This document shows positions 9,001-60,519 of a DNA stretch of 64,000 bases, in pieces; position 1 is the stretch's first letter, and each line of letters starts with the position of its first letter. A program made the position numbers and the translations under genes. Below the pieces are notes generated by a model that saw only the letters and a list, made by a program, of their open reading frames with translations, was not told the origin of the DNA and ran no database searches. This DNA comes from Marsupella aquatica (lineage: Eukaryota > Plantae > Marchantiophyta), in NCBI GenBank assembly GCA_973895155.1, contig OZ316894.1:21299867-21363866 (forward strand). Reading direction: 5' to 3'.

Positions 9001-9760
9001 AAACACCACAAGAAATACAAAAACAAGATGTATATTATAATGTCAACATAACAATTGGAGTTAAAATGGCTCATCCTTAGTCCCTTGTCTAATTTTTACT
9101 GTGCTATTCAAATAGTTTTCAAGGTTTAGTTATTTAAACCTGTTAGCGGGAACCCAGAAAATGTGAGTAGCAGGAGCTCTGAATCCTGAATTTTAAAAAA
9201 CCAAATTGTAATCAACTGAGGGACTCTACCAAGGTCACATGTGAAAGACAGTAGCACATCTAACTTGCCGCACTTAGGTGTTGTGCCAGCAATTGTATGA
9301 ATGCTACACATTTTTACAATGTGGATCCAAGAAATCAAGAAAGCAGGAAAACATAGTCAAAGAACAAATGAGAGAGAATAATGGTGGTGCAATGCATGTG
9401 GACATCCATGTGGTCCATAGTGGTCAATGTATCTAGACACTAAATTGTTCTCCACTACTATTGACTTTAGGATGCAGCATATGGCAACTCGTGAGGGTAT
9501 ACGCTATTTCCTCCACAACCACCTTTCCAGTATCAACCAGCACATAGAAACTGAACTTGTAGTATAGCTGATTTTTTTGAAGCTGCTAAAATGGTGAATG
9601 CAACTTTCAGTATTTTGTCTTATTCAAAATTCTTTTGTTATGAATTTTTATTTCAATGTGTCTTACCAAGGTGCATCCCTTGTATAGTTTAGATTTCCAA
9701 TTTATTCTGGCACCCCTCTAATTTTTTTAAATCTTTGCTATATTTTAAGATCATCCACCC

Positions 9761-10119
9761 TGTCATGCCGAGGGACAGTGCCTCTTATGCACATTGGCAT
9801 GTCCCTCGCCTGCCCGCTAGGTATGTAGTTAGGGCTAGTGTACTACCTGAGTTAGCGACATGTTCTTGTAGCAAGTCTGGGCCGTTCTTGAAGCAAATGT
9901 GCTTGTTAGTGTGACGTCAGGACTTTGCTTGCTTAGGGCATGTCTTTCTTTGTTGGTTTTCAGTTCTTCTTGAATCACTGTTGACAGAGCTCAGACAGTG
10001 CTCGTCGGTTCCGTACACGGGATTCACATAGTGATTCGTTAGATGCTCCCGGCCGATCTTGGCATCCTGCCGGTTTTCGATTCAATTTCAGTACAATTGT
10101 TTCTCTTACGCCTTTTATT
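9761..10119 (+). repeat. Terminal repeat A1 (359 bp; inferred downstream U3-R-U5 part of the LTR)
   Basis: Direct repeat of 18719-19077 (about 11 transitions by eye) and of 47696-48058. Confidence 0.95.
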
Positions 10120-10131
10120 CAAGAAGAACTG
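10117..10131 (+). promoter_or_regulatory. Primer-binding site complementary to the element's own LTR (Tf1-like self-priming PBS)
   Basis: ATTCAAGAAGAACTG at the end of A1 is the exact reverse complement of CAGTTCTTCTTGAAT at 9961-9975. No TGG-starting tRNA PBS is present. Confidence 0.75.
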
Positions 10132-11569
10132 TCGAGTTAGCGGTGAGGAGAAGAAGATTGCTCGTGGCGATTTCGACAATTTCTGGTGAAGCTGGTGCAA
10201 TTTCTATGGAAAAACGCTGAGCGATGGGGTGGAAGTTATGACTTTAAGTGTATACACTTAAGTATCAGTGTATACACTTAAGTCAAACAAGCCCCCCTCC
10301 CTCGTTTTCCTTTGTGTTTTTGCCCAGGCTTTTCTTTTCCGGCCGCAACCTGTTTCGCGACTTGCTGTTATCGATTGCTGCATCGACGCTGATTGCACAG
10401 GGCGCACCCGCGCTTGCATTTTTAACGACCTCTTTGGGGCCCTTTTTCGTTTACCGGCCACGACTGCCTCTGCCACCGCGCGCCCCTTTTCTTTCGTCCT
10501 TTTTCGCCTTGCCAAGCCTCGAAGTTCCTCCCTCCGTTTGTTTTCCTGCCTTTATCTCGCAGGCTGTGCGTACAGGGCATTGTGCCTCCCACTGCCAGCA
10601 TTTAATTAAGGAGAGGAGGGGGAGCAAGTACAAGCCGGGAGTCGAGGAGAAGGCACGGAGGCCTATGAGCATTAAAGCAGGGGGGAGGGGGGAGCCGAGG
10701 CTGGAACGCAAGGAGAGGAGGGGGACTGGCAGGAGCGAGTGTGCCAGGAGAGGGCACGAGGCCCTATGCTGAATTAAAGAGGGGAGGGGGAGTTCACATT
10801 CAATTCCCTTCTCGGGAGGCCCACAGTGCATTAATGAAGGGGGGGAGTTTACGTAGACTCCTTTCGAGAGTCCTCTTGCAGGGCACGAGGCCCTTTCACA
10901 ACATTAAAGAAAAGGGGGGGGGGGTACAATCGACTCCCTTCTCTCGAGAGTACTTTGGGAGCTCATACGGAGGGGGCGCGAAGCCCTATGCAGGGCTCGT
11001 GCCATTAAGAGGGCCCGGTTTCTTTTGCCCTCGCCTCGCCTTGGCTTTTCTCCTCTTTCCGGCCACCTGCGAGCCTGCCTCAACTATTTTCCCCTTTTTC
11101 GGCCTTTCTCGTTTTGTTTTTTTTTGCCGCGCCACGATTGACCTGCTGCCAGTTCCCGGGTCCACATATGGTCGATGTGTATACACTTACGGGGGCCCCT
11201 TTCACGTGTTGTAGGGCCCATTTCTTTCCCTTTGCTCTTGCTTTGTTCTCGACTACCTGCATAGGGCACCGTGCCGATCGGTCCTTCCTTTTTTGGGTCC
11301 ACATAGGGGCCCAACGTATACACTTTAAAGGGGCCCAATGTATACACTTAAGGGGGCCCCTATTCATGTTTTCAAGGGCCCATTCTTCCGGGATTTCTTT
11401 GTTGCCACCACATGTCATCTGCATAGACTTTGACAGTTTCTCAGCGCTTACACATTCTACACATTGCTGCCTTGCACCGTTTGTTTCCTTTGTGGGTTTT
11501 ATTTCTTAGCGTTGGGGCTGCCACTCCTTTTTCTTGTCAATTTCTTTCCCATTGGCACCCCGAGTGAGC

Positions 11570-13561
11570 ATGCAGCATGTCAGCCGACGAGCCAGGAGGT
11601 AGCAGCTCATCACCACCAACACCCCGGTACCACTTACGAAGTGATCCACGACCCTTGGTGCCAATTTCATTGGAGTCTCGGCAATTTTGACGACGTCCGC
11701 AGACAGCAGCAACACCCACACCACGCAATCCTTCTGCTCAATTTGGCGGTCGCTTCACCACTACCCCGAAGACTGCTATCACTTCCTTGCCATTTACCCC
11801 TTCTACATCAGTGGTTGTTCCAGATTCACCGACATACAACATGATGCTAGCCACTCATCTGGCCGCATTGAGCGCTTCAGCGGGCGGCCAGGCACTGTTT
11901 CTTTGCGTGAGTTCAAATCCACTTTCTACACTATCGTTTACAAATTGGAGTTGAAGTACGGCAGCAATTTCACAAATACTTTTGCATTTAAGCAGCTAGC
12001 CAGGTATGTGCACCATGAGGCTTTGGATGTGTATGAGCAGCACTCTCAACGGTTGCTTGTTGTCACACAATTGCCTAATCCTATCTATGCTAGTGCAATT
12101 GCAGTTGCCTCACAACTGGCATTACAGAATGCCATTGCAACCCATGCTGCTGCTCCTCCTACTTCCCCTCCTACTCTAGTTCCTACCACTGTGCCAGTTA
12201 CTCCCACTGTCTTGGCACAGGCTACATCAGGCATTTCTCCCACTATTGATTCTCCTGCCTTTGCTGATCCAGTGGCTGAGTTTTTCCAGGTTTTCGAATT
12301 GGAATTCCTAATCAAGAGTGCTGACAAAATCATGCAGTTGGCTACCTTTGTAAGGCAGCGCGATGAAACATTGAAGATGATGTATCGCCGGCTTCTCAAG
12401 CTGAAGGAGGACACCCAGAGCATCACTGACCTGGAGGCTGCGCATCGCTATCTTCGTGCATTGGAGGGCACACCAGCTCTCCATTCGCAAGTGTTGCAGC
12501 AAGTATTCTCAGAGTTTGGAGACAGCTATGCATTGCTCAATGTCTATGACACTGCTGAGAAACTTGAGTTGGCCCATGCACATTATGAGGCCAGTATTGC
12601 ACGTCCACCGCGATCCAGGTACCAGGCTGCTGCCCCTACATTGGCCACCCCTTCCCGTGTGGTACAATATGGTTCCAAGACCAAGCCAGCACATGCTGCT
12701 TTCATGCTGTCATCTTGCAACTACTGTGGTAACCCCAATCACAAGGCTAATGAATGTGATATTGTTGCTGAGGATCTGTCTTATGATTTTTGCGGGAAAG
12801 TGAGTCACTTGGAAGCAGTTTGTTTTGCCAAATTCCCACAGAGGAAGCAGCTACGATAACAGGCCACTCATCCTGCTCCTGTTTCCACTCCCCCACCAGC
12901 TAGGAGGGCTCCTATTGCATCAGCTACTCCTCCTTCCAATGGCAAAGCACCTGGTGCCAACAAATTGCCCAAGCAACAACAGAAGCAACCAGCTCAGAAG
13001 GAGGCTCACAATGCACAGGCAACTCAACTCCAGTCTCTGACTCATGAGGTTGAGTCCTTACGTGCCCAACTTGCCAATATCAAAGGCAAGTCAACTGCCT
13101 CTGCTGGTCCTTCTCAACCGGCTGGTCACGTGCAACCCATCCCTGGCTTAGGCACCACTGACAGTTCAGCACCTCTACCCCGCTCTTTCTATGGCTTGCC
13201 ATTTGATGCTCATATGGGTGAGTGTGTGTTGTCCTCTGCTACACAGCCTGGCCTTACGGCAGAATTTTCAGATTCATTCTGCCCTTCCTATTTTGCTTAC
13301 CAGCAGGCCAATGCTGCTTCCCGTACTGCTCCCACACGCCGCATTGTACAGGCTGATGGTCTTGCTGTTGGTCCTATGACTAGAGCCAGGGGAGCTCGGG
13401 CTGTCATGCCCCAATCCTTTCAGCCACTCACACTTGCTGAAGAGCGCACCTTGTTGACAAGGGGGGAGGGAGCTGCAGCTACATCCATTCCACCACCAGG
13501 TGCTGCTGACATTTCATAGGGAGTTGTTTCTCCTTAGCTGCTTGAGCATTTCACCTCCGGT
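11570..13561 (+). pseudogene. gag: Gag region of the retrotransposon polyprotein (capsid-like domain, CCHC zinc knuckles, Pro/Ala-rich linker) with in-frame stops
   Basis: ORFs 11687-12859, 12965-13519 and 13562-14917 share one frame, which also holds the ATG at 11570. Knuckles are CNYCGNPNHKANEC and (C>Y)DFCGKVSHLEAVC. Confidence 0.8.
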
Positions 13562-13959
13562 ATGGCACAAAGGATTCTTACAACTCCACTTTTCAGTTGC
13601 CATGATTTACAGCTGGATGCTAGAGCTATCATCAGAGCGCTAGAGGGCTCACTGCATTCTTCATCAGCCCCTGTGACACCAGTTTTGGAGGTCCAATCTC
13701 ATGTACATACTAGACCTTCTTCTTCTCCATTACATGCTTCCACTAGTTTGGCTATCCTAGTACCAATTTCCAGTGGTAGCGATGACAGTATTGCTGCAGA
13801 TTGTGTGACCAGAGCTACACTGGATTCTGGTCATACTGCTCCATCTTTCTTGACTATGTTGTTGAGTGGAAAGACTGTGGATACTAACTCCCTTCACAAG
13901 ATACCTCATCATCTGCCAAAAGTGGTGCCTAGTGACAGGACTTCAGTTTCCACCACCAT

Positions 13960-14340
13960 TGCCATTGTTGACAACAGGAATTCAATGGTCAAGTTGGAGG
14001 GTCACACTCCTCAGGTGGTCATGCTAGACACAGGCGCTCAACCAGTGATATTGGGCATTCAGTTTGCCAAGAAGATGGGACTGCTGACTGATCATTTACA
14101 GCAATCTAGGTGGCATATTCGGACTGCTAGTGGCACTGTGGAGGATGTGCTGGGTGAGAGTTCTACTTTACTCACTCTCACTTTTAATGGAGGTACAGAT
14201 CAGGAACTGCATTTCCCAGTCAGATGTTTGGTTACCAATGCCACTACGTATGATGTGCTCATTGGCCAGGAGGCTTTGTTCCCACCAGGTTTTACCATTG
14301 ACAATTGGCATGAGCATGCATACTACAGAGTTGATTGGCA
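13960..14340 (+). pseudogene. Retropepsin aspartic protease domain
   Basis: VMLDTGAQPVILG active site, IRTASG flap and YDVLIGQEAL motif in ORF 13562-14917. Boundaries are approximate. Confidence 0.9.
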
Positions 14341-14689
14341 TATTGATGGCTCACACTTGGGCTACATTCCACTTGATTTGCATGGTGCCCATACACCTAT
14401 GGCTCACCACTGTGTGTTGAAAGCAGTGCACACAACTACCTATGTCAACCACCCATTGCAGGATTGGATTGAGGAGGATGACGATGAGGTGGCTGCTGCA
14501 CATGCTGCTGCACGTATAGCAGCACTTTCCAGCAACGTGGATCATCAACCAGAGGTGGTACAACGGCTCCAAGCAGCCCATGGACCTTTGGTGGCTGCAT
14601 TGCGCAAGTTTGAAGACCTTGGGCAGCACAATGGACAGCCAATAGCCCCAATCTTGAGCGCACCAGTTACATGGACTCCTGCTCCGGAT

Positions 14690-15154
14690 GGCCTTACATT
14701 GCTTGAGCTTTTTGGTGGCATTTCTACAGGCCTGGAAGCTCTCCTACAGTCGGGCATGGTGGTGAAGCAATACATCTACGTGGACATTGATCCAGGTGCA
14801 AGGCAAGTGGCTGAATCCCGTCTGCTGGAATTTTTAGACCGATTTCCCCAACAGTTTCCACACAATGCATGGAAGTCTGCATTTTCTTTCTTCCCTCCAG
14901 ATATCCAGCTTGTCTAGCACCGACACTTAACCCTTCTTGGTTCCCTTGATTTGATCATAGCTGGTTGGGAATGCCAAGGGTCTTGGCCTGGTTTATCGAC
15001 ATTCTACCGGTACATGGGATGAACCTAGTCTTGAGGAGAGAGAACGGGCTATGGGCTTCCAATTTGGTACTACATGTCACACCAAATCACCAGGCTGGCC
15101 AGGAATGCTTTACTTGGCAGGGTAATGGATCTCAATGCTCTCACTTGGCTTTTG
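14690..15154 (+). pseudogene. DNMT3-like C5 cytosine methyltransferase domain inside Pol (stop, internal deletion, frameshift)
   Basis: Motif I LLELFGGISTG; motif II-like YIYVDID; motif IV DLIIAGWECQG (14948-14980, after TAG 14915-14917, same frame); motif IX EERERAMGF (from about 15033, shifted frame); motif X ITRLARNALLGRVMD (from 15086). Confidence 0.88.
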
Positions 15155-15499
15155 GTCACTTGCATCCTTTTTCAGATGTACATTCATTCAGCATCCTGAG
15201 TTCCAGCCCTACCACTCCATGGTGCTGTTACATGGCATCCAAACCAGGTGCACTTACCTCTATTCAACACTCACCGCTTCAGTCCAAGTGTTGGGGGGAG
15301 GAGGTCCCTTGTAATGTGGCTGACATTATTTTTGAGTTTCATGGTGTGGACCAACCTAGATCAGCAGGTACAACAGGCCTTGGAGAGGCCTCATCACCTT
15401 ATCAGCAGCATGCTAGCAGCTTGGACAGTGGAGAGGCTAGCACTTTTGGTTCTTCAAGCACGAGTACATCAGGTCTTATTCCTAGTGTTGCCAACTACA

Positions 15500-16920
15500 C
15501 ATTCATCATGGGCAACCACCTGAGTAAAAGACAGAAGGACTAGCTGTTGAATTTGCTCCTCAAGCATGAGAATGTGTTTGCTTTCTCTATGAAGGCGAGT
15601 ATGAAGGACTTGGGTAAGTGCAAGACTATGCAATTCTCCATTGAGTTGGCTGATGAAACACATATCTTCAGGCGGAGACACCGTTTGAGTAAGCATGAGT
15701 GGCAACTGGTGGATGAGAGGTGCCAAGAGCTCTATGAAGCTGGTCTTATTCAGCCATCTACATCAGATTTTGCAGCAGCTACAGTGATGCCAGCAAAGAA
15801 GGATTCCAGTGGATTGTGGACAAAGAAGCGCATGTGTGGGGACTACAGGCCATTGAACCTGGTCACACCCCAGGATAGGTACCCCATGCCGCGGCCAGAG
15901 GAGCTATTTGACAGCATTGGAGACTCAGACATCTTCACTCTTGTGGATCTAAGGCAAGGCTTCAACCAGATTTTGCTGCTTGCAAATTAAGGATCGCAAG
16001 AAAACAACTTTCCATGGTAGTAACCAACTATGGGAGTGGTTGGTGATGCCATTTGGCTTGAAGAATGCGCCCATATTCTTTCAAAGAGTCATGGACCAGG
16101 TTCTTCAAGGTGCTGAGTTTCTGAAATGCTACATTGATGATGTGTTGGTCCACAACAAAGGATTTGACCAGCATCTACTTGACCTTGAGGAGCTATTCAT
16201 GAGGCTTAAGAAGGTGAACCTGAAGATACACCCCAAGAAGTGTGAATTTGTTGTCAGATCAGTAGTATACCTTGGGCACCGCATTCTTCCAAATGGAACC
16301 ATGGCTCACTGGGCCAAAGTGGTATCCATCTTGGAAATGCCCACTCCTACTGATGTTCACACTCTTAGGAGCTTTATTGGGTTGTGCAATTACTACCGGA
16401 TCTACATCAAAGATTTCAGTACCATTGCACATCCATTGTACTCTTTGTTGAAAAAGAATGTGACTTGGACATGGAGTACAGATGCTGAGGGAGCATTTGC
16501 CACTTTGAAGGAGAAGCTCTCAGAATACCCGGTGCTTAGAAGACCTGATTTCAACAAGGTCTTTGTGCTACACACAGATTGGAGTGCCCTTGGGATTGGT
16601 GCCATTCTGGGCCAGCATGATGAGGAAGGTAAAGAGTATGTCATTGCCTATGCATCCAGGAGCAACAATCAGGTAGAGAGTCATTATTCTTCTTATGAGG
16701 GTGAATGCCTTGCTGTTGTGTGGGTTGTCATACATTACAGGCCCTACCTCTATGGGACCAGGTTTGTTCTCTACACCGACCACCAGCCCTTGAAGTGGTT
16801 GATGACCAATGACAAGCTTACGGCAAGCTTGCTCGTTGGGCACTCATACTCCAGGAGTATGATTTTGAGGTAATTCATAGGCCTGGTGTGACACATCAAA
16901 ATGCTGACACTATGTCTCGC
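15500..16920 (+). pseudogene. pol: Reverse transcriptase and RNase H domains (frameshifted near 15985 and 16820)
   Basis: RMCGDYRPLN, DLRQGFNQI, MPFGLKNAP and YIDD (16130-16141); RNase H motifs LHTDWS, EGECLAVVW and YTDHQPL. Confidence 0.95.
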
Positions 16921-17049
16921 AGCCCTTTGATTGCCTCTGATGATTCCTCAGATGCACGATAGGATTTCGACCAGGTTTCCATCCTGCCTACATTTCATGC
17001 ATCTACCTATCTTGCTTTGCTGCCATGCTACATTGTTGACCAACCTGTG

Positions 17050-18501
17050 GTGGACATATGGGAGGACAACAACACTCTGAGATTTTTGCAGCATGGGGAG
17101 TACCCCATACATGTTACTGTTGCCCAGAGAGACCGAATTCAACAAAGGTCCAAGCGTTACTTGTGGAAGGGAGATCATCTCGTGCGCTGCTTGCCAGACA
17201 GGGAAGTGGTGGTTCCACCCATTCATGAGAGGATTGACCTTATCCGTAAGGTACATTCTGAGCTTGGTCATTTTGGCGTTAAGAGGACTTACAGCCTCTT
17301 GGTCCCTCATTATCATTGGAGAGGCATGCATGGCCAAGTTCGAGATGTTATTGCCCGGTGTGAACAGTGTGATAGGGTGAGGACTTCTTTCACATCCCGA
17401 CAACCCACACTTCATCCACTCCCTATTCAGGGCATGTTTTATCGTTGGTCATGTGATTTGGCTGGAGAATTACCCCTCACGTCTCGGGGTAATCTCTACA
17501 TCATGATCATGATAGAGCATTTCTCCAAGTGGATAGAACTTGTGGCATTGCCAGATAAGACCTCCCGTAGCACCAGCCAGGCATTCCTACAACAAGTTCT
17601 CAGCCGCTTTGGAGCTTGTGCAGAATGTTTCACTGACTAGGGCTCAAAGTTTAGAGGAGAGTTCCAAGAGCTGCTTGATCAGGCCCTCATTGATCATTGT
17701 CAGACATCACGAGATCACCCGCAGGCAGATGGCTTGGCAGAGCGCATGGTTCAGACATGCAAGAAGGGCCTCCGAAAGATCTGCCTCACCAAAAACAAGG
17801 AGGATTGGGACCTGGCCTTACCCTACATTGCCATGGGGTATAGGATGTCCAGACATGCATCACTGTCTAACTTTTCTCCCTACTTCTTGTTGTTTGGTCG
17901 TCACCTAGTTCCACCTTCTGCTATTGCTGCTCACATGCTTCAGGTGGTGGACTTGGATTCAGCTGTGACTTGGTCTGATGTGATCTCTGCGAGGGCTGCC
18001 CTATTTAGGAGAGTTATGCCCATGGCCATGGAGAATTTGGCCATTACACAGCACAGGGACACACTGCGTTGTGCACACACACGAGGGGGCACTTTTCAGC
18101 TCAAGGTCAGGAAGTTTGATGTGGGAGATTTTGTGTACTTGCAGCGACAAGCTAACGACACCCTTGACACCTCTACCAGTCGTACGATTCACAGGGTTAA
18201 AGCTATTCGACCGTCTGGAGTGCTAGAGTTACAAGGGGCAGATGGGCGCACAATTGCTGACAATGCCAAGAATTGCGCCCCTTGTCATCTGCCTAACCTG
18301 GATCCCACCATTGTGACTTCTACTTGGATTCCACCTGTGGACTACCCTTGCAAAGTGTGTTTACGAATTGATGATGCTGACCAGATGCTGCTGTGTGACA
18401 ATTGCAATGGAGGGTACCATCTTTTCTGCCTTCGGCCTGAACTTACCCAGGTGCCAGAAGGGTTATGGTTTTGCCCTTCCTGTGCTCCACATGCTACCTG
18501 A
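17050..18501 (+). pseudogene. DDE integrase with C-terminal PHD finger (one in-frame stop at 17638-17640)
   Basis: HHCC motif (HSELGH...CEQC), catalytic WSCDL / TD*GS / GLAERMV. PHD CKVC...LLCDNC...YHLFC...WFCPSC at 18349-18483. Confidence 0.95.
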
Positions 18502-18533
18502 TTTTTCTTCAGCCCTCCTTTTGGCTGTGGTCT

Positions 18534-18540
18534 GGGGGGG
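18534..18540 (+). promoter_or_regulatory. Polypurine (G7) tract immediately 5' of repeat B1
   Basis: GGGGGGG directly before ATACAGAGG in both copies (also 51229-51235). Confidence 0.65.
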
Positions 18541-18716
18541 ATACAGAGGTATACACCTCCACTACGTACATACCACCTCATTTGCTTTTTCTTGGCACTT
18601 GTAAATGTGATGGGATTTTTTCTATGCATGTTGGTTGCTAGCAGCTTGCACATATGCCTTGTCGGTGACTTTTATGTTTTTGATACACTATGGCTACGAT
18701 ACTATATGTCACGACA
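18541..18716 (+). repeat. Terminal repeat B1 (176 bp; inferred upstream U3 part of the LTR)
   Basis: Direct repeat of 19078-19253 and 51236-51411. Confidence 0.95.
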
Positions 18717-18718
18717 GC

Positions 18719-19077
18719 TGTCATGCTGAGGGACAGTGCCTCTTATGCACATTGGCATGTCCCTCGCCTGCCCGCTAGGTATGTAGTTAGGGCTAGTGTA
18801 CTACCTGAGTTAGCGACATGTTCTTGTAGCAAGTCTGGGCCGTTCTTGAAGCAAATGTGTTTGTTAGTGTGACGCCAGGACTTTGCTTGCTTAGGGCATG
18901 TCTTTCTTTGTTGATTTTCAGTTCTTCTTGAATCGCTGTTGACAGAGCTCAGACAGTGCTCGTCGGTTCCGTACACAGGATTCACACAGTGATTCGTTAG
19001 ATGCTCCCGACCGATCTTGGCATCCTGCCGGTTTTTGATTCGATTTCAATACAATTGTTTCTCTTACGCCTTTTATT
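18719..19077 (+). repeat. Terminal repeat A2
   Basis: Copy of 9761-10119, separated from B1 by the dinucleotide GC. Confidence 0.95.
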
Positions 19078-19253
19078 ATACAGAGGTTTACACCTCCACT
19101 ACGTACATACCACCTCATTTGCTTTTTCTTGGCACTTGTAAATGTGATGGGACTTTTTCTATGCATGTTGGTTGCTAGCAGCTTGCACATATGCCTTGCC
19201 GGTGATTTGTATGTTTTCGATACACTATGGCTACGATACTATATGTCACGATA
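19078..19253 (+). repeat. Terminal repeat B2
   Basis: Copy of 18541-18716 (about 7 differences), fused directly to the end of A2 (TTTTATT|ATACAG). Confidence 0.95.
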
Positions 19254-20988
19254 ACCCTGGAACAAAGCTGGTTGAATTTCAAGCCCTTATTCTCATGAGT
19301 ACATAAGAAATGATCTAAATAATGTGCACACCTTATGTCTTTAAGTATTACTCATAGTTTTGTGTCCTAAATTTATGGTTTTAATTAGTTTGAGTGTCAA
19401 TACCTAAAGTAAGTACATAAGTATCTCTACTCATGTACATTATGTGTACATCCCAATACCATAAACTTAAAATTTTCTGTTCATTATTATTTTTCTTTAC
19501 ATGTGTATTTTTATTTTTGTACCTTATGTGCACAAGTTTCAATATCAGACTCTACTTATTCCTAGTCAATGTCTTGTTTATATTTTAATTAGAACATCTG
19601 TATATCCCTAAAAAACAAAAAATGATGCATGTTCCAGTATGAGCATGCTATATAGCTTCTTGTTCATTTTTGGAAAAGAAGAACACTTCCACATATTGGG
19701 GAATTTGTTTTGTGTTTCTGAAAGTGGGGAAACTTAGCCCCACAGCTTGATTCCCCTTTGAACCTCAGGTACAGCCAAATGCAGAGGGGACTCCAAAAGA
19801 CAAGCCAATGTATAGTGCACTGCGTTTCATATGTACCACCCGCTGGGGTCTCACTTCAAGGGAGATCCATATCAGGCCCTAAGTTTTTAGGTAATAAAAT
19901 ACCCCAAAATTTAAGTAAAAGAATTTTTGTACAAATGAATTCATGCAATATTTTCAAATTTGGTGTTAAAAACCCTCTCGATTTTGTAATTCTCAAACCC
20001 TGAATTAGAAAACAACTCTAATGTTTTTGAACATTTTTTTTTAGAATCTTCCACCGAATTCAATTGGAGAAAACAAAGGAAAAAGCCAAGGCCAACCAAA
20101 GAATCTTCCACCCCATTCAATCTTCCTTGATATGGTCTCCTGCCTTTCTGAACTTGCGGTTTCATTTTTAGTTCTTTGAGAGTGGGAAACTGAGTAGAGT
20201 AGCAGGTGAGATTGACCAAAGATTGTTTATGATTAACCTTCTAGGTGCTGATCGCTTAAGTTTCTATTTCTTGTTAGGTTTTGGAGAGGAAGGGAAACCT
20301 CAACTGATATCTTAGTTCTGCGAGGAATCCTAATCAAAATGGGCTTGTCCTCTTCATTTCAGATATATTTGCTGCGCCTGGCTTGCCATAAACAAACATT
20401 TAAAATGCAAGCTGTTTGCTTCGGCTGTCAAGATAGGTTGAGTGAAACAGTGAGTGATAAATCAGTTGAAGCCGGTTTAGGCTTGCTGGTTAAGTGAGGA
20501 TCAAGTTTGATTGGCATCATCAAGAAAAGCTCCTATCCGGATAAGATAGACCACAATATTCAAATGGGTAGTTGTGGCTAATGGGGGTCTGTGGGTAGGT
20601 AGTTTCTTCTAGGTAGAAAACTGGCTAAGGGAAGACAAAAACCTGGAGATTGTTTACTGACTTAATGGAAGACATTTCAGTGCGGTGTCATGTGGCAAAT
20701 TTAGGTCACTAATAAAACTGCAAAATCAACTCGTTAAACCGCTTCTGTCCATTAGTCAGTACTTAATGCTCTTAAGAAATTTAAAAAGTGTACTAAAAGT
20801 GACTATCTTGTCCTCCCATAACTTTGGAGATAGCGGTGGCTTAAGATTTCAATAAAGATCCCGATAAGTTAAGATTATCTTCCAACTGTGCCTGCATATG
20901 GCAGCCAATTAGCTCAATTAGCGTCCTTCTTCTTCGAGGTCGATGTCCGTGATGAGTTGCTGAAAAAAGCTATTCGCTACATCTGTTC

Positions 20989-39721: not shown

Positions 39722-40558
39722 ATGATGGCCAGAATTGGAAACGTTGGCCCCGAAGCATTCTCCCGAAGTGATCGCATCTCGAACGGATTAAGCACAGTGA
39801 TGCGCGACCACATGAGTTCTAGTCGGGTGGATATGCTATTGGGGCTGGCGTCGCCTCAGTCATCGTCACCTGCTTTTGATGTGATTGACTTGAATGAGGA
39901 GGACATCTGGGGCTCGGAAGAGAGCGCCAATTTTTCCAGCAATGTCACGACCAGTCCGGTGGCTGAGGTAAAGAAGTTTGAGATGAGTTTTGTTGGCGGC
40001 TCATCGAGCATTAGCAAAGAGGTTGTCGAGCCCGATCCTTTTAGATTCATCAATAACGGTAGAAGGTGGCGCAGCCGTGAAAAAGATACCGGGCTATCCA
40101 TGGCATACGGGGACGCCGGGCGAACCCGAGGGTTTCCAAGTCCTCTGAATCGAGCAGCTAATGTAGCCAATGGCACGTTCTCCCCCACCGCAAATGGGAA
40201 CAACGGGCGGACACCATCGCGGCTGATTCCGAATAGGGAAGCTTTGCATGCATCGTCTCCAAGTAGTAGGGTGCAGCATCAATCTGCTCCCGTAAATGTG
40301 CCCGACTGGTCGAAGATCCTAGGCGCAGAGAGAAAAGGCCCTTTCACTAAAGCTTTCGTCGATGACGATGTTGTACCTGAGAACGACGAAGATGAGGAGA
40401 GACTCCCTCCTCACGAGCTCATTGCTCGAGAGTATGCGCGGAGTCACATCACGACGTTCTCCATGTGCGACGGTGCTGGAGGGACTTTGAAAGGTAGAGA
40501 TCTGAGCCGTGTCCGCAACGCCGTGTTGAGGAAGACCGGCTTTCTGAACGATCAATGA
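39722..40558 (+). CDS. S40: Senescence regulator S40 / DUF584 family protein (single-exon CDS)
   Basis: DLNEEDIW motif, HQSAPVNVPDWSKILG, LPPHELIAREY and FSMCDGAGGTLKGRDLSRVRNAVLRKTGF. The first in-frame ATG is 39722; the ORF track start at 39569 is a TTG. Confidence 0.92.
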   Translation: MMARIGNVGPEAFSRSDRISNGLSTVMRDHMSSSRVDMLLGLASPQSSSPAFDVIDLNEEDIWGSEESANFSSNVTTSPVAEVKKFEMSFVGGSSSISKEVVEPDPFRFINNGRRWRSREKDTGLSMAYGDAGRTRGFPSPLNRAANVANGTFSPTANGNNGRTPSRLIPNREALHASSPSSRVQHQSAPVNVPDWSKILGAERKGPFTKAFVDDDVVPENDEDEERLPPHELIAREYARSHITTFSMCDGAGGTLKGRDLSRVRNAVLRKTGFLNDQ

Positions 40559-46019: not shown

Positions 46020-46330
46020 ATGAGAACAACCGGGTCAATTGGGTCCACATCTAAAATTTGCGGCTGACCCTTGTTCTCTCTCCTTTATTGGGTCTCCTAT
46101 AGTTGGGATCTTGTCTCTCACAAGTTTGAACAACTTGGTCAATTGGGTCCACATTTAAAATTTGTGGCTGACCCTTGTTCTCTCTCCTTTATTGGGTCTC
46201 CTATAGTTGGGATGTTGTCTCGCAAGTTTGAACAACTTGGTCAATTGGGTCCACATTTAAAATTTGTGGCTGACCCTTGTTTTCTCCCCTTTATTGGGGT
46301 CTCCTGGAGTTGGATCCTGTCTCATAACTT
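46020..46330. repeat. Tandem repeat, about 106-bp unit x3
   Basis: GAACAAC...GGTCAATTGGGTCCACAT...GGCTGACCCTTG occurs three times. Confidence 0.9.
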
Positions 46331-47695
46331 GGCGCTTTTATTCTTTTGGCGGTGTGATATAATAAACTGGATAGATCAGTACACTAGCCAATAAATCTAG
46401 GGGCTCCTTGGTGCCACCAAGTTATTAGTCATGAATGCTGAATGTCCTTGCTAGTTTTCAACTACTGTAGCCAGGGCTGTACTCTAGAGTTGAGGGACTT
46501 CTCTATTTTGGTAGGAAGTAGGAGAATAGAATCTTTTGGTCTGGCCTGGTAGGTGTTGGGAGGACGGCCTCAAGAGGGCCAGCAAGGCTTGAGGGGGGGT
46601 GCAAAATGATTACATCTCGGGTCATTTTTTACTCTTTCTAGGTTTTTGGGGGTTTGCATATGAGTTTCATGTTTGTCCTCTCTTGATCTCTTTTTGCTTT
46701 TTCTCCATTGTACTTTTTTTTGGTAATTTGGTCCTTCTCCTTTAACTGGAGTCACTTTAAAACTGGTCGCTGTCCTTTTGCCATTATGCTTTATTTGGCG
46801 TTTTCTTAGTCAATTGCTCCTTCTTCTTGTATTGGAGTCCCTTTCAATTGGTGGGTGTCCCGATGCATAGAGTGGCTACCAATAAAGCAACAAGACGTCC
46901 GCCAGAGGCCAACGAGGCCATTGGATGGGACTGACTGTCCTGTCCAGTTTAGAGGCATAAAAGGACAAACCAACGTACTCCGTGGCATAATAGGCCTGCC
47001 CTAGATTTGCAGCTTCTAGTTCAGAAGTATATATGAAAATAGGTACAAGGGTGGGGCTGTCCTGAGTTGCAGCCCATCTGGAATTGGATGGTGTGTAATT
47101 CTTAGGGTTTTTACTATGCAGGGTCAGTCGTTCATTTTGGTATTGTGCAGGCTCTTTTTGGAGCTCTGATTCGCAATGTGGGACATGATTTCCCTCTGGA
47201 ATTTCGCTAGAGGGATTAGAAATTGGCAATTGTGGAAAGCCAGTTGCTCATTTGAGAAAGAGAAAATTTGTATTTTTTGTGTGGGAATAAGCTCCGACTA
47301 AGTCTTAAAATTGATTGGAATCATGGACTGGCTCTGGAAAAGAATGTTGGGCGTTGTAGAATGGAGTTGGTTGGTAGGATGATTGAAGACTTTGGTCATC
47401 TTGGAGGATTATATGGCTTGCATGATAAGATGCTAATGATGACTTCTGATCAATAGTGGTTTTTTGATCTGCCTTGAATTTTTGGTTTCTTACACTCTTG
47501 CTCATCTTGATTATGCTGTGAGCTGAGTATGCTAGTTACCTGTAGTTAGCGGTCTTTACAAATGGATTATTCTCCTGTAGATTTTTGTTGGAGTTCAGTA
47601 GTTCAGATTTTTTATTTTTTTGGCTTGATCTCTTCCTAAACTCTGGATTGAGTTGGCCCTCAGATCCTGATCTTTGCCCATGGATTTCATGGAGC

Positions 47696-50600
47696 TGTCA
47701 TGCCGAGGGACAGTGCCTCTTGTGCACATCGGCATGTCCCTCGCATGCCCGCTAGTATATAGTTAGGGCTAGTGTACTACTTGAGTTAGTGTCATGTTCT
47801 TGTAGCGAGTCTGGGCCGTTCTTGAAGCAAAGGTGTGTGTTAGTGTGACGCCTGGACCCGGTCCTACTTAGGGCATGTTGTTCTTTGCCATTTTTCAGTT
47901 CTTCTTGAATCGCTGTGAGACAGAGTTTCTCAGAGGCTACTCGTCGGTTCCGTACACGGAATTCACACAGTGATTCGTTAGATGCTCCCGGCCGATCTTG
48001 GCATCTCGCCGGTTTTCGATTCGATTTCAGTACGTTTGTTTCTATCACGCCCTTTATTCAAGAAGAACTGCCGAGTGAAGGGAAGAAGATCAGAAACGAT
48101 GTGTTTCTCAATTGCTCGCGACGGTCAACACTTTCCGTCGACAGCAGTGCAATTTATTTGAAGAAAAATCTAGTGATGGAGTTAGAGTTAGATTTTTCTT
48201 TGTATACACATCACTTATGTGTATACACTTAAACTTGCGGCGTGTGGGAGAAATACGGGAGGCAGCACTGGCCTGCTGGGAAGCAAAATAGGAAGGGCAT
48301 AATGAATCTGAAAATTCTGCTGTAAGGCCAAGCTGTGTAGCAGAGGACAACACACACTCACCCATATGAGCATCAAATGGCAAGCCATAGAAAGAGCGGG
48401 GTAGAGGTGCTGAACTGTCATCTCTACCACTGGAAATCGGTACTGGGATAGCCAAACCAGTGGAAGCATGCAATGGAGAAGAAGAAGGTCCAGTATATAC
48501 ATGAGATTGGACCTCCAAAACCGGTGTCACAGGGGCTGATGAAGAATGCAGTGAGCCCTGTAGCGCTCTGATGATAGCTCTAGCATCCAGCTATAAATCA
48601 TGGCAACTGAAAAGTGGAGTGGTAAGAATCCTTTGTGCCATACCGGAGGTGAAATGCTCAAGCAGCTCAGGAAAAACAACTCCCTGTGAAATGTCAGCAG
48701 CACCTGGTGGTGGAATGGATGTAGCTGCAACTCCCTCCCCCCTCGCCAACAAGGTGCGCTCTTCAGCAAGTGTGAGTGGCTGAAAAGACTGGGGCATGAC
48801 AGCCCGAGCTCCCCTGGCTCTAGTCATAGGACCAGCAGCAAGACCATCAGCCTGTACAATGCGGCGAAGTCCACGAAGAACTTTGCCTGGTTCGTGGCGT
48901 AGAGGTTTACCAGCGCGGCAGTATTGGCTGCTGGTCCTATGACTAGAGCCAGGGGAGCTCGGGCTGTCATGCCCCAGTCTTTTCAGCCACTCACACTTGC
49001 TGAAGAGCGCACCTTGTTGGCGAGGGGGGAGGGAGCTGCAGCTACATCCATAAAACTTTGAGGAGTTTTATTGGGTTGTGCAATTACTACCGGATCTACA
49101 TCAAAGATTTCAGTACCATTGCACACCCATTGTATGCTTTGTTGAAAAAGAATGTGACTTGGACATGGAGTACAGATGCTGAGGTAGCATTTGCCACTTT
49201 GAAGGAGAAGCTCTCAGAATACCCGGTGCTGAGAAGACCTGATTTCAGCAAGGTCTTTGTGCTACACACAGATTGGAGTGCCCTTGGGATTGGTGCCATT
49301 CTGGGCCAGCATGATGAGGAAGGTAAAGAGTACGTCATTGCCTATGCAACCAGGAGCAACAATCAGGCAGAGAGTCATTATTCTTCTTATGAGGGTGAAT
49401 GCCTTGCTGTTGTGTGGGCTGTAATACATTACAGGCCCTACCTCTATGGGACCAGGTTTGTTCTCTACACCGACCACCAGCCCTTGAAGTGGTTGATGAC
49501 CAACGACAAGCTTACTGGCAAGCTTGCTCGTTGGGCACTCATACTCCAGGAGTATGATTTTGAGGTAATTCATAGGCCTGGTGTGACACATCAAAATGCT
49601 GACACTATGTCCCGTAGCCCTTTGATTGCCTCTGATGATTCCTCAGATGCATGGCAGGATTTTGACCAGGTTTCCATCCTGCCTACATTTCATGCATCTA
49701 CCTATCTTGCTTTGCTGCCATGCTACATCGTTGACCAACCTGTGGTGGACATATGGGAGGACAGCGACACTCTGAGATTTTTGCAGCATGGGGAGTACCC
49801 CATACATGTTACTGCAACCCAAAGAGACCGAATTCAGCAAAGGTCCAAGCGTTACTTGTGGAAGGGAGATCATCTCGTGCGCTACTTGCCAGACAGGGAA
49901 GTGGTGGTTCCACCCATTCATGAGAGGGTTGGCCTTATCCGTAAGGTACATTCTGAGCTTGGTCATTTTGGCGTTAAGAGGACTTACAGCCTCTTGGTCC
50001 CTCATTATCATTGGAGAGGCATGCATGGCCAGGTTCAAGATGTTATTGCCCGGTGTGAACAATGTGATAGGGTGAGGACTTCTTTCACATCTCGGCAACC
50101 CACACTTCATCCACTCCCTATTCAGGGCATGTTTTATTGCTGGTCATGTGATTTGGCTAGAGAATTACCCCTCACATCTCGGGGTAATCTCTACATCATG
50201 ATCATGATAGAGCATTTCTCCAAGTGGATAGAACTTGTGGCATTGCCGGATAAGACCTCCCGTAGCACCAGCCAGGCATTCCTACAACAAGTTCTCAGCC
50301 GCTTTGGAGCTTGTGCAGAATGTCTCACTGACCAGGGATCAGAGTTCAGAGGAGAGTTCCAACAGCTGCTTGATCAGGCCCTCATTGATCATCGCCGAAC
50401 GTCACGAGATCACCCACAAGCAGATGGCTTGGCAGAGCGCATGGTTCAGACATGCAAGAAGGGCCTCCGGAAGATCTGCCTCACCAAAAACAAGGAGGAT
50501 TGGGACCTGGCCTTACCCTACATTGCCATGGGATATAGGATGTCCAGACATGCATCACTGTCTAACTTTTCTCCCTACTTCTTGTTGTTTGGTCATCACC

Positions 50601-51411
50601 CAGTTCCACCTTCTGCTATTGCTGCTCACATGCTTCAGGTGGTGGACTTGGATTCAGCTGTGACTTGGTCTGATGTGATCTCTGAGAGGGCTGCCCTATT
50701 CAGGAGGGTTATGCCCATGGCCATGGAGAATTTGGCCATTGCACAGCATAGGGACACACTGTGTTATGCACACACACGAGGGGGCACTTTTCAGCCCAAG
50801 GTCAGGAAGTTTGATGTCGGAGATTTTGTGTACTTGCAGCGGCAAGCTAACGACACCCTGGACACCTCTACCAGTCGTACTATTCTCAGGGTTAAAGCTA
50901 TTCGACCGTCTGGAGTGCTAGAGTTACAAGGGGCAGATGGGCGCACAATTGCTGACAATGCCAAGAATTGCGCCCCTTGTCATCTGCCTAACCTGGATCC
51001 CACCATTGTGACTTCTACCTGGATTCCACCTGTGGACTACCCTTGCAAAGTGTGTTTGCGAATTGATGATGCTGACCAGATGCTGCTGTGTGATAATTGC
51101 AATGGAGGGTACCATCTTTTCTGCCTTCGGCCTGAACTTACCCAGGTGCCAGAAGGGTTATGGTTTTGCCCTTCCTGTGCTCCACGTGCTACCTGACTTT
51201 TCTTCAGCCCTCCTTTTAGCTGTGGTCTGGGGGGGATACAGAGGTTTACACCTCCACTACGTACATACCACCTCAGTTGCTTTTTCTTGGCACTTGTGAA
51301 TGTGATTGGACTTTTTCTAAGGATGTTGGTTGTTAGCAGCTTGCACATATGCATTGCCGGTGACTTGTATATTTTCGATACACTATGGCTACGATACTAT
51401 ATGTCACGACA
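47696..51411 (+). mobile_element. Gypsy retrotransposon copy 2 (same family; internally deleted and rearranged; structure A-internal-B)
   Basis: Starts TGTCATG (47696) and ends CACGACA (51411). A 4-bp TSD GAGC lies at 47692-47695 and 51412-51415. A = 47696-48058, B = 51236-51411. Confidence 0.95.
49058..51196 (+). CDS. pol: Uninterrupted 3' half of Pol: RT connection, RNase H, DDE integrase, PHD finger (5'-truncated, no true start)
   Basis: 712-aa open frame nearly identical to copy 1, with LHTDWS, HHCC, D-D-E and a C4HC3 PHD at 51044-51178. Confidence 0.9.
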   Translation: MRSFIGLCNYYRIYIKDFSTIAHPLYALLKKNVTWTWSTDAEVAFATLKEKLSEYPVLRRPDFSKVFVLHTDWSALGIGAILGQHDEEGKEYVIAYATRSNNQAESHYSSYEGECLAVVWAVIHYRPYLYGTRFVLYTDHQPLKWLMTNDKLTGKLARWALILQEYDFEVIHRPGVTHQNADTMSRSPLIASDDSSDAWQDFDQVSILPTFHASTYLALLPCYIVDQPVVDIWEDSDTLRFLQHGEYPIHVTATQRDRIQQRSKRYLWKGDHLVRYLPDREVVVPPIHERVGLIRKVHSELGHFGVKRTYSLLVPHYHWRGMHGQVQDVIARCEQCDRVRTSFTSRQPTLHPLPIQGMFYCWSCDLARELPLTSRGNLYIMIMIEHFSKWIELVALPDKTSRSTSQAFLQQVLSRFGACAECLTDQGSEFRGEFQQLLDQALIDHRRTSRDHPQADGLAERMVQTCKKGLRKICLTKNKEDWDLALPYIAMGYRMSRHASLSNFSPYFLLFGHHPVPPSAIAAHMLQVVDLDSAVTWSDVISERAALFRRVMPMAMENLAIAQHRDTLCYAHTRGGTFQPKVRKFDVGDFVYLQRQANDTLDTSTSRTILRVKAIRPSGVLELQGADGRTIADNAKNCAPCHLPNLDPTIVTSTWIPPVDYPCKVCLRIDDADQMLLCDNCNGGYHLFCLRPELTQVPEGLWFCPSCAPRAT

Positions 51412-52299
51412 GAGCCTCCCTGATGTGGTTCAGGCTTGAACTTCTCCTGCCCTAATAGGGTGTCTGAATCTTCGTAGTCCGGGCTACCAACGGCAAAAAG
51501 ATAAGGCTGATACTACCACCAGGATGTGGCTTTCAGGCATGCATAACCAAGAGAAATTCGAGAGGGATTGTAGCCAGTTGGCCTGCCATTAGCAAAAAAG
51601 CCCAGGCAAAAAAGTGTGGTCGCCAACTCGGTCTCCCGCGCACTTTAAGTCTGCGTCCAGCCCAGCAAACTCTCCGCCCAAGGAAAAGCCTGAGTCTTGT
51701 AAGTTTGAGACGCCCTAATGCAAGATACCTCTTAGGTTAAATCTGGCCCACTAGTTTCGGCTTGGGAAAATATAACGGCCCTCCCTCTGTTCAATTCTTG
51801 TAAAGACCACCTCCCCTCTCCCCGCCCCCCCCCCAACAACAAAATAAACTTTATAGCTCAGGTACTGTAGAGTAAGGGCAGACAGCAGAGGCCCCCGGAG
51901 CAAAGGACACTGTAAATTGGGCAGGACAATTCTGGGCAGGTAATTGTAGGTCAGAGAGAGGGTCAGAGAGAAGATTTTTTTTGTCAGCGATAAAGGACAA
52001 AAACTTTCGGGCCAAGTCACAGGCCTCGAAAACCGGCCAATGATTCGGCCCTACAGTATATGATTATGCCACTGCCCGGCCATCCCGACTTTGTAACTGT
52101 ACCGCCCATCTCTGTCGCTTATCCCCTAAACTGACGGCCAGTATTGAAAGATTCTCCCAACGAAAATCTCTCTCGTCCGGATGCGGATCGTTGCGCAAAA
52201 CAAATCTTTCCGGCTGCCCGGGTGGCCCACCACATCTGGGCCTGCCCCTCCCTGCCCGCCAACGTGCGAGGAGTTTATGTGGTCCCTGTTACTTCTTTG

Positions 52300-52720
52300 G
52301 AGTAAAATTTCCCTTTTGACACCCAAAAATTCGAAAATGATGCTCCCATGTACCATGACACGTTTTACACCTTTACTCATTTCTTTACTCATTGACAATT
52401 TCCCTTTTTGACACCCAAAAACTCGAAAATGATGCTCCCATGACACGTATTACGCCTATACTCATAGACGCTCCCATAGACTACTAGACTTTCCACAGTC
52501 TACTCACTGACACTCCCATGGACCATGACATGTTTTACACCTTTGTTCAATGATGCTCCCATGACACGTATTACGCCTATACTCATAGACGCTCCCATAG
52601 ACTACTAGACTTTCCACAGTCTACTCACTGACACTCCCATGGACCATGACATGTTTTACACCTTTGTTCAATGATGCTCCCATGGACCATCATGTGTTTT
52701 GCACCTTTACTCATGGACAG
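52300..52720. repeat. Tandem repeats including a near-exact 119-bp duplication
   Basis: ATGATGCTCCCATG units; about 52430-52548 is repeated at about 52549-52667. Confidence 0.85.
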
Positions 52721-58069: not shown

Positions 58070-59280
58070 GTTTGTAGGGCTGAGGTGTTGGTTTTAGGGC
58101 TTATAGACAAATTCCTTTTCAAAACTCTCCTATGCAATTTACTCCATAGCTTTACCAAACTTTTCAGTTTGTTGCTCAGTAGGCTTTAGTTCTTTTGTGC
58201 AGTGTGTGTAGTGTTTTCGGCTTGGGTGCTGGGCCCTGTTTGTGTTTTTTGCCTGGGTGGCTTTCGTCTCCTTGCGTGATTTGGACGGGTCTCTGCTCCC
58301 ACCTTGAAAAAAGAAGAAGCTCTTTTGCCTATGTCGGGACTCTTGGCTTTTTTCTTGGGTCTTTCCTTGGACTTTTCCCCTTTATTGGGTGTCCGGCCTT
58401 TGGGATGCTGTCTCCCAGTTAGGCATCAGGCATTCACGCTTCTTAGTAGGGCCAATGTGTTTTAGGGCTTCTAGACAAATTTCTCTTTAGGACCCTCCTA
58501 TGTGATTTACTCCCCTGCTTCACCACACTTTTTGGTTTGTTGCTCACTAGGCTTAGTTCTTTTGCCATTGTAGGGGAGTGCGTTTTTTTCCCTCTTTGGT
58601 CTTCTTGGGTTTCCTTGGATTTCTCCCTTTTCTTGGGCGTCTGGCTTTGCAATCCTGTCTCTCAGTTAGATCAGGCATTCACTATTCCTAGTAAGGCCAA
58701 GGTGTTTTGGGGGCTGCTAGACAAATTTCTCTTAGCTACCCTCCTACGTGATTACCTCCATAGCTTTGCCAGGCTTTTCAGTTCTCAGTGTTCTTTAGTT
58801 CTTTTGCAGTTGTTGAGGACTCTCAGACCTATTGGTTCTTTGGTTTATTTGGATTTTCCCTGTTTTTCTTCTTGTTTATTGGGTGTCCAGCCTTTGGGAT
58901 CCTGTCCCCCATTCGATATCACCCATTCACTATTCTTAGTAGGGGAAAGGCTGTTTGTTTTAGGGCTCCTACACAAATTACTCTTCATGACCTCCTATGT
59001 GATTTATATTCTATAGCTTTACCATGCTTCTATACTATTCTTAGTAGGGCCAAGGGTGTTTGTTTTAGGGTTTCTAGACAAACTACTCTTCTTGACCTCC
59101 TATGTGGTTTATTCTATAGCTTAACCACGATTTTAGTTTGTTGCTCACTAGGTTTTGTTTTGAGGTTGTTAGTGACTCTCTGGCCTTTTGGCTTTTTGGT
59201 CTTCTTGGGCTTTCCCTTATTTTCTCCACCTTATTAGGTCTCCTGCCTTTGGGATTGTATCTCCAGGTTGAGCTTGTTTT
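58070..59280. repeat. Diverged tandem array of about 250-bp units
   Basis: Recurring TTAGTAGGGCCAA...CTAGACAAATTTCTC...CTCCTATGTGATTTA; an inverted single copy lies at about 5640-5850. Confidence 0.7.
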
Positions 59281-60259: not shown

Positions 60260-60490
60260 AAGACAAACTATATATAATAATGCCAAAGTACAAAACTGCT
60301 AAACCCTGAACAAAGAAGACTAAAACTATATATAATAATGCCAAAGTATAAAAATGGGAAACCCTGAACAAAGAAGACTACAACTCTATATAATATAATG
60401 CCAAAGTACAAAAATGGGAAACCCTGAACAAAAAAGACTAAAACTATAAACAATAATGCCAAAGTACAGAAATGTGAAACCCTGAGACAG
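60260..60490. repeat. Minisatellite, about 59-bp unit x4
   Basis: ATAATGCCAAAGTACAAAA...AAACCCTGAACAAAGAAGACTA repeats. Confidence 0.85.
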
Positions 60491-60519
60491 GTCCCAAAGG
60501 AAAAGCAACCCAATAAAGG

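Follow-up and report, generated by a model that had tools for sequence, protein, structure and literature searches.

A broken Gypsy element with a DNMT3-like methyltransferase and split terminal repeats in the liverwort Marsupella aquatica: a wider host range for a known kind of retrotransposon, and possibly a new replication route

The window, i.e., the stretch of 64,000 nucleotides of contig OZ316894.1 of Marsupella aquatica that was analysed, contains on its forward strand a Ty3/Gypsy element (9761-19253) with the coding order Gag, protease (PR), reverse transcriptase (RT), RNase H (RH) and DDE integrase (INT). A Gag-like region (11843-12856) with a weak zinc knuckle (zf-CCHC, Pfam E 0.006, below the cut-off) is followed by an aspartic protease (13988-14278; PF13975, E 2.9e-7), a frameshifted RT with a YIDD motif plus RH (15802-16825; Pfam E 2.6e-21 and 1.2e-31), and an integrase with an HHCC zinc finger (17218 to approximately 18200; PF17921, E 1.2e-14; rve, E 3e-7), which is interrupted by a stop codon at 17638-17640 and carries a PHD finger at its C terminus (18349-18483; PF00628, E 3.4e-12). 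Neither the frames of the element nor 22 long relatives gave a Pfam match to a tyrosine recombinase or a chromodomain; instead, they have the rve integrase and the PHD finger, respectively. Elsewhere in the window, an open frame on the reverse strand (62769-63134) matches the zinc finger of DNA polymerase epsilon (PF23250, E 1.3e-5) and is likely to be a host-gene exon, and repeat arrays, tandem or dispersed, with units of 45-160 bases are found at 46024-46326, 52336-52714, 58092-59266, and 60268-61594.

Between the protease and the RT lies the remnant of a DNMT3-like cytosine methyltransferase (MTase) domain (14678-15181, forward strand). An earlier note on this DNA had placed such an enzyme here, and its peptides are indeed found at these positions, flanked by the Pfam matches to protease and RT-RH. 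The N-terminal part (14678-14980) contains motif I (FGG; LTLLELFGG starts at 14693), motif II (VDID), and motif IV (GWECQG, 14963-14980, with the catalytic Cys at 14972-14974), and has a stop codon at 14915-14917. In the C-terminal part (14979-15181), motifs IX and X are spread over two frames, with EPSLEERERAMGFQ read in another frame and ITRLARNALLGRVMDL back in the first one. The resulting order, I-IV-IX-X, is canonical and not that of the permuted DRM enzymes, again in agreement with the note.

Alignment with an undeleted natural relative, P0005 (residues 726-1052), showed 74, 83, and 81% identity for three pieces, which correspond to residues 1-101 (14678-14980, with one stop), 260-295, and 292-327 (the last two in two frames) of the 327-residue domain. 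Residues 102-259, i.e., ~158 codons directly before the C-terminal part, are missing, and with them motifs V-VIII, including VI and VIII, and most of the target recognition domain (TRD), whilst motifs I, IV, IX, and X are kept. Because of this absence, the enzyme is internally deleted and not just interrupted; this deletion had escaped the earlier note, as had the PHD finger of the integrase, the split repeats, and the breadth of the family. Since the undeleted relative aligns and a profile built from 20 natural relatives matches, in all six frames of the window, only the three remnant pieces (iE 1.2e-41, 2.1e-12, and 5.3e-10), the domain is not a chance resemblance. The note had proposed PF00145 as a check; the undeleted relatives clear its cut-off (28-60 vs. 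22 bits), whereas the window fragment, translated across its stops as X, matches neither Pfam (none of four pieces) nor NCBIfam. Single-sequence fold prediction of the fragment gave a pLDDT of 34.9, which is not usable. Including the stop, the frameshifts, and the loss of ~158 codons in this domain, the element has five or more in-frame stops and changes frame several times, and this copy is dead. The identities of the element, as Ty3/Gypsy, and of the domain, as a DNMT3-like methyltransferase, are nonetheless nearly certain.

A search with the N-terminal part yielded one long protein among 402 candidates, P0002, which is 76% identical and matches PF00145; over Gag-PR-MTase, it is 58% identical to the window element. 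The P0002 cluster contains P0005, in which Gag, protease, the whole 327-residue domain, and RT follow each other. A search with the domain found 1279 proteins, and the 120 listed include ones named as from Calypogeia fissa and Sphagnum compactum; opening 10 clusters added a fragment from S. jensenii and a 1549-residue Gag-PR-MTase-RT protein from C. fissa. Thus, the suggestion that the lineage reaches land plants was borne out, by undeleted relatives in C. fissa and by fragments in the two Sphagnum species. Of 563 metagenome matches, the best 80 all keep the order Gag-PR-MTase-RT-RH-INT-PHD as far as the sequence reaches. Two of these loci, L002 and L003, share 96 and 92% identity, respectively, with the fragment from S. 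jensenii, for which reason they are called moss-type here; undeleted relatives are present on moss-type contigs too. The absence of a Pfam match and of half of the domain in the window copy could be taken to mean that a single copy had captured a fragment of a host DNMT3 gene, or that the assembly is faulty. However, the methyltransferase occupies the same position in Pol in all 80 loci where its neighbours are present and in the C. fissa polyprotein, and contigs from four public sequencing runs span all 30 bins of the element, with one contig departing from the window sequence at the deletion point. These relatives in other plants and loci rule out such a reading, the probability of which is negligible; the enzyme is a trait of the family, as the note had supposed.

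In the full library, the wider family comprises 550 clusters at E<=1e-30. Another retroelement domain is present in 100 of the best 150 wider relatives, among which RT-RH-MTase-INT-PHD is the most common complete order (30 proteins). P0361, P0312, P0315, and P0329 are examples of Gypsy polyproteins in which the related methyltransferase sits between RNase H and integrase and a PHD finger is present as well; P0367 also carries a G-patch. Of 10 wider-family clusters opened, one named an organism, the chlorophyte Scenedesmus sp. PABB004; no named Klebsormidium sequence was found among the named matches listed. Unrooted FastTree trees were built from 50 rows in all, namely those in which RT, RH, and MTase were long enough together with six added by hand. 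The eight rows with the methyltransferase before the RT formed one side of a branch in both the RT-RH tree (100) and the MTase tree (92). This congruent split suggests that the enzyme travels with the RT and that its place in Pol changed once.

Scans for a prokaryotic or viral donor of the methyltransferase revealed no close one: 28 pattern matches in viral contigs contained no relatives, phage proteins were 22-27% identical over half of the query, and only one of 13 matches in prokaryote genomes was a relative. The latter, L081, comes from a bin with a cyanobacterial label and is a full retroelement; like P0177, labelled Obscuribacterales, it is likely to represent eukaryotic contamination. 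L081 (1-9285) is intact, with two long open frames and a methyltransferase that is only 44% identical, and the best solved match to its Pol is that of Ty3 (E 6.7e-100). As it was assembled as a circle, its inserted layout is not visible. In L081, a stop codon in the same frame separates Gag-PR-MTase from RT-RH-INT-PHD, which suggests read-through.

The label DNMT3-like is supported by profile and fold similarity, the latter based on predicted models. A profile of 53 relatives matched, among solved structures, DNMT3A best (E 7.5e-17), followed by the DRM-type structure 4onj (2e-9) and HhaI (7e-7). The natural P0005 domain was modelled with a pLDDT of 86.6, and all 35 rows listed by Foldseek for this model are DNMT3A, DNMT3B, or DNMT3C. 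In VIA comparisons, the model aligned with DNMT3B over 270 residues (Z 26.7, rmsd 2.7), with lower Z values for DNMT3A (25.9), M.MpeI (23.0, the best bacterial one), HhaI (20.7), and DNMT1 (18.3). One phage methyltransferase model also matched, at a similar E (1.3e-16) but with an rmsd of 7.3. Both approaches place DNMT3A/B first, in line with the assignment in the earlier note. Motifs I, IV (Cys), VI (EN), VIII (RxR), IX, and X are in canonical, non-DRM order across the family. Animal DNMT3A/B and the DNMT3 of host plants (PMC6453930) share the fold and motif order of the catalytic domain, but the element enzyme is only ~20% identical to them, lacks PWWP and ADD domains, has an insertion after motif II and ECQ or PCQ in motif IV, and is part of a polyprotein.

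The catalytic Cys is kept in 145 of 146 wider relatives, all motif VI variants listed have EN, and SAM-binding and catalytic motifs are conserved across clusters that are less than 50% identical. Motif IV lacks the usual Pro-Cys in the window copy and in 55 of 58 moss-type copies, which have Glu-Cys (GWECQG); among the wider relatives, the residue before the Cys is E in 83 and P in 50 of 145. Being so frequent whilst the Cys is kept, ECQ is a family trait and not a sign of decay. In six of eight computed pairs of the least-decayed copies, dN/dS of the methyltransferase was 0.08-0.12, and it was 0.25-0.29 in the other two. The median over all pairs, 0.36, is close to that of RT (0.37) because most copies are decayed; only one of 58 full-length moss-type domains has no stop. 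The family methyltransferase is probably catalytically active.

A Dnmt3-like domain of this kind was described before in KnitGypsy-Dnmt3 of the alga Klebsormidium nitens, where it is likewise unpermuted, located in a Gypsy Pol, and under purifying selection (de Mendoza et al., 2018, PMC5890265). According to the legend of Fig. 4c in that paper, the repeats are arranged as in DIRS elements (PMC5890265), and this is also the case in the window element. By description, therefore, the window element is a KnitGypsy-Dnmt3-type element, with an unpermuted Dnmt3 in a Gypsy Pol and DIRS-like repeats. It differs in its host, a liverwort, with peat mosses for its relatives and a related architecture in Scenedesmus. 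The available text of that description contains nothing on a PHD finger, target duplication, priming signal, or mechanism (PMC5890265). Later papers of the same group mention, in their available text, Dnmt3-Gypsy elements only for 'streptophytes' (PMC12344493; 10.64898/2026.05.21.726589), and methyltransferases do not come up in the available text of a paper on a liverwort genome (PMC12885004). No account of Dnmt3-carrying Gypsy elements in land plants, and no mechanism for split repeats combined with an integrase, was found in a literature search whose reach excluded most subscription journals and Repbase. Two other kinds of element are comparable. SymbioDIRS-Dnmt3 is reported as a retroelement with a cytosine methyltransferase and the layout A-ORFs-B-A-B, but with a tyrosine recombinase, and EpiLTRs combine a chromatin reader with a methyltransferase as the window family does, but the enzyme is a sister of DNMT4 and is accompanied by Dam and a chromodomain (10.64898/2026.05.21.726589).

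The S40 senescence-regulator gene of the host (39722-40558, forward strand) is 86% identical to that of Calypogeia fissa, 60% to that of Marchantia paleacea, 47% to that of Ceratodon, and 43% to that of Sphagnum; this one gene points to a leafy liverwort as the likely host. Between the two liverworts (window 11843-18500 vs. P0309), the element is 65-66% identical in Gag, 77-78% in PR, 75-77% in MTase, and 82% at the start of RT, and between the window and the moss-type loci L002 and L003, the values are 63% (Gag), 71% (PR), 71% (MTase), 85% (RT), and 85% (INT). The element is thus about equally similar in the two comparisons. Judged from these identities, it may have been transferred between leafy liverworts and peat mosses, with a host contrast that comes from one gene (43-47 vs. 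86% in S40) and with dS saturated between window and moss-type copies.

The ends of the element, TG...CA, do not belong to an ordinary pair of LTRs. The layout is A-internal-polyG-B-GC-A-B, with A alone on the left and B-A-B on the right, and there is no complete LTR at each end. Repeat A1 (9761-10119), which begins with TGTCATG and forms the left insertion end, is 96.9% identical to A2 (18719-19077); B1 (18541-18716), which ends with CACGACA, is 96.6% identical to B2 (19078-19253), which is joined directly to A2 and forms the right insertion end. The whole is flanked by a 4-bp target duplication, ACCC, at 9757-9760 and 19254-19257. At the junction between B1 and A2 (18710-18725), the two insertion ends meet head to head in the palindrome GACA-GC-TGTC, with a 2-base spacer; this is the putative integrase site. 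A polypurine tract of seven Gs (18534-18540) lies immediately next to B1, at a distance of 713 bases from the right end of the element. A putative primer-binding site directly after A1 (10117-10131) is the perfect reverse complement of 9961-9975 within A1, where the transcript would have its 5' end and self-primer; a match of 15 nt was not reached in any of 2000 shuffles. All these features are on the forward strand, except that the palindrome has no orientation. Moss-type loci share the layout and have a G run at the same place.

A second, rearranged copy of the family (47696-51411, forward strand) consists of A, RNase H-integrase-PHD in a 730-codon open frame in which the D-D-E triad is visible, a poly-G, and B, with no methyltransferase or RT left, and is flanked by the target duplication GAGC (47692-47695 and 51412-51415). 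Parts of the Gag-PR linker are present as two inverted segments (48236-48866), and a long stretch has been lost, but the ends and the target duplication are intact. Nested, inverted, or head-to-head family copies were seen in moss-type contigs as well (L072:517-10894, L074:12349-12828, and L041:9279-10887).

Eighteen loci had a 5' A together with a 3' B; six of them were dropped (three truncated on the left, two cut by a microsatellite, and one at a contig end), and the remaining 12 represent 11 independent insertions, with an exact 4-bp target duplication in eight, one C/T mismatch in two, and none in one; a 5-bp duplication does not fit the insertion ends. The 5' end is TGTCA in 23 of 25 independent insertions, none of which has B upstream of the 5' A. 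In all 18 loci examined (15 independent), the B|A spacer measures 2 bases, and the variants of this junction are C-to-T or G-to-A changes. The A|B junction is more variable: in 14 independent insertions, the join is full in nine, 2 bases short in three, and 1 base long in one, and most of B2 is missing in one. In the window itself, this junction is longer by one base than in many contigs from three related runs. L081 has the same palindrome core, 110 bases after its G run, despite its divergent methyltransferase, and the self-priming match is 15 bases in the window, 15 in the moss type, and 13 in L081, in three different sequences (reached in 0, 0, and 1 of 2000 shuffles); outside these priming and palindrome signals, the repeats of different clades barely align. 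A TATA box lies ~30 bases upstream of the presumed transcript start in 18 of 25 moss-type copies, whilst none was seen in the window. The folding z-score of the leader is unremarkable overall (-1.36), yet the primer helix forms.

In Tf1/sushi elements and the plant element Tcn1, the 5' bases of the RNA are reported to be complementary to the primer-binding site, with no tRNA site (PMC7175516, PMC6317226), and the window family shows this arrangement too, provided that its transcript starts where it appears to. Those elements are described as having ordinary LTRs and mostly chromodomains (PMC7175516, PMC6317226), in contrast to the split repeats, PHD finger, and methyltransferase of the window family. 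By analogy with Tf1, the transcript may start inside A, and its first 12-15 bases may pair with the site after A1 and prime the minus strand. The G run would prime the plus strand, and the LTR made by the RT would be B+GC+A. Since the primer site and the G run bound the LTR in this way, the linear cDNA would read BA-internal-BA and would not have TG...CA at its ends. Joining of these ends would create the A|B junction; the direct join is attributed to end joining because it can come only from those ends. The raggedness of the junction fits joined cDNA ends, although the 2-base losses could also result from slippage in ATAT after insertion. In the upstream LTR, the integrase would then cut both strands of GACA-GC-TGTC behind CA in a staggered way, which would give the permuted insertion A-internal-B-A-B and leave 2-base 5' overhangs like those of an ordinary processed end. 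Such 2-base overhangs are indeed reported for processed retroviral ends (PMC11054761). The forms with A-internal-B may come from one-LTR circles, B-B recombination, or assembly collapse; L016 and L024 show a single insertion in both forms, A-internal-B-A-B and A-internal-B. Self-priming, end joining, and the cut at the internal palindrome, taken together, appear fairly likely.

The layout A-ORFs-B-A-B is also that described for split-repeat DIRS elements (PMC5890265), and the element might be copied like DIRS or Ngaro, with an integrase acting only in the last step. The RNA would then extend through B2, the internal B|A would serve as a splint to rebuild the ends, and A|B would be inherited, which would account for the single permutation observed. 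However, the covarying primer site after A1 and the G run before B1 give an LTR of B+A and leave B2 uncopied, A|B varies in five of 14 insertions and B|A in none of 15, and a DDE integrase and 4-bp duplications are present with no match to a tyrosine recombinase. Copying of this type is, therefore, quite improbable. The single permutation is nevertheless the main difficulty for end joining followed by palindrome cutting, as a symmetric two-LTR circle should also yield A-B-A-internal-B, which was found in none of 25 independent insertions. Perhaps, an end-jump of the RT encounters the upstream site before the other one, a cis signal acts near the primer site, or the element's own enzyme methylates in a strand-specific way. 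Repeat similarity gives weak to moderate support to the circle route: A1 is nearest to its own A2 in six of nine cases, which is moderate support, and the B1 and B2 copies are not separated into two lineages, which also speaks for this route; the signal from B pairs is weak, with the own partner nearest in two of 16 and mean distances of 0.093 within and 0.12 between pairs.

The proposed cut has parallels. Insertion sequences of the IS3/IS30 type have a DDE enzyme that opens abutted ends with a 2-3-base spacer in a circle, although they are DNA transposons without reverse transcription. The integrase of foamy virus is reported to cleave the palindromic junction of two-LTR circles (PMC1180852), where two ends are likewise head to head; there, however, the palindrome arises from ligated cDNA ends in a side route, whereas that of the window family lies inside the LTR, has a 2-base spacer, and is copied through RNA. 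In retroviruses, linear DNA and not the two-LTR circle is described as the integration precursor, and the circle model was abandoned (PMC11054761), whilst all window-family insertions with readable ends use the internal palindrome.

As to the role of the enzyme, the protease may free the methyltransferase into the same particle, where the cDNA or circle would be methylated, most likely at CG. This is favoured by analogy with SymbioDIRS-Dnmt3, the domains of which methylate CG de novo in yeast (PMC5890265), and the element's own cDNA is, on that basis, judged slightly better than evenly likely to be the main substrate. Alternatively, the enzyme might act mainly on the insertion site or host chromatin, or just bind DNA, e.g., the palindrome, without methylating it. 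The PHD finger of the integrase would bring the complex to chromatin, Glu replaces Pro before the catalytic Cys in the window and moss-type clade, and the KnitGypsy-Dnmt3 enzyme of Klebsormidium produced no methylation in yeast, a result that its authors call inconclusive (PMC5890265). However, the SAM-binding and catalytic motifs are kept in distant clusters, the SymbioDIRS-Dnmt3 domains are active in yeast, and the domain moved within Pol yet still travels with the RT; a chromatin-directed or binding-only role is thus unlikely. Base composition bears on this point in an ambiguous way. CpG is depleted in family copies (o/e 0.27-0.37, compared with 0.78 in intact L081), and C-to-T changes separate the two copies in the window at rates of 0.109 in CG, 0.071 in CHG, and 0.011 in CHH contexts, which fits self-methylation and host silencing alike.

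The best solved relatives of the PHD finger, with the second window copy as the query, are those of WSTF, CHD4, KDM5/Lid, ATXR5, and BAZ2B. Several of these read unmethylated H3K4, and the PHD finger of the element lacks the cage tryptophan of H3K4me3 readers. It probably reads unmethylated H3K4 at the target and might replace the ADD domain that is absent from the captured catalytic domain. PHD fingers in Gypsy polyproteins are known from Gypsy-7a of Chlamydomonas (10.1101/2022.06.16.496473), and fusions of PHD fingers to transposons are reported to be common (10.1101/2021.11.30.470311). Overall, a self-primed Gypsy element with joined cDNA ends, an integrase cut inside the LTR, and a methyltransferase that marks the new DNA is the best explanation, and one that we hold to be rather more probable than its negation. 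A bolder version is tentative and, at present, rather doubtful: in an old lineage of green-plant LTR elements, extending from chlorophytes to liverworts and mosses, cDNA ends would be joined, the LTR palindrome would be the only integrase substrate, self-methylation would leave one of two identical sites to be cut, and the new copy would arrive pre-methylated in chromatin with unmethylated H3K4.

The element in the window is thus genuine but broken and belongs to a known kind, KnitGypsy-Dnmt3, with a host range wider than published; among LTR elements, its replication route may be novel. In the textbook view, linear cDNA of retroviruses and LTR elements is inserted through its ends; for retroviruses, a route through the circle junction had been suggested but was later given up. 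Here, a natural family in which all inserted copies are permuted at an internal palindrome makes the circle route testable, and intact elements, such as L081, exist. Programs that search for LTRs would miss elements with split repeats, because the two ends of such an element do not repeat one another. Elements that combine a DNMT3-like enzyme with a histone reader are not the oddity of one alga, but form a diverse green-plant lineage that reaches land plants, hosts which silence transposons by the same mark as the enzyme of the element would make. If joining of the ends is obligatory and cutting is confined to the palindrome, such an LTR element would always need a circular precursor and would encode an epigenetic switch of its own.
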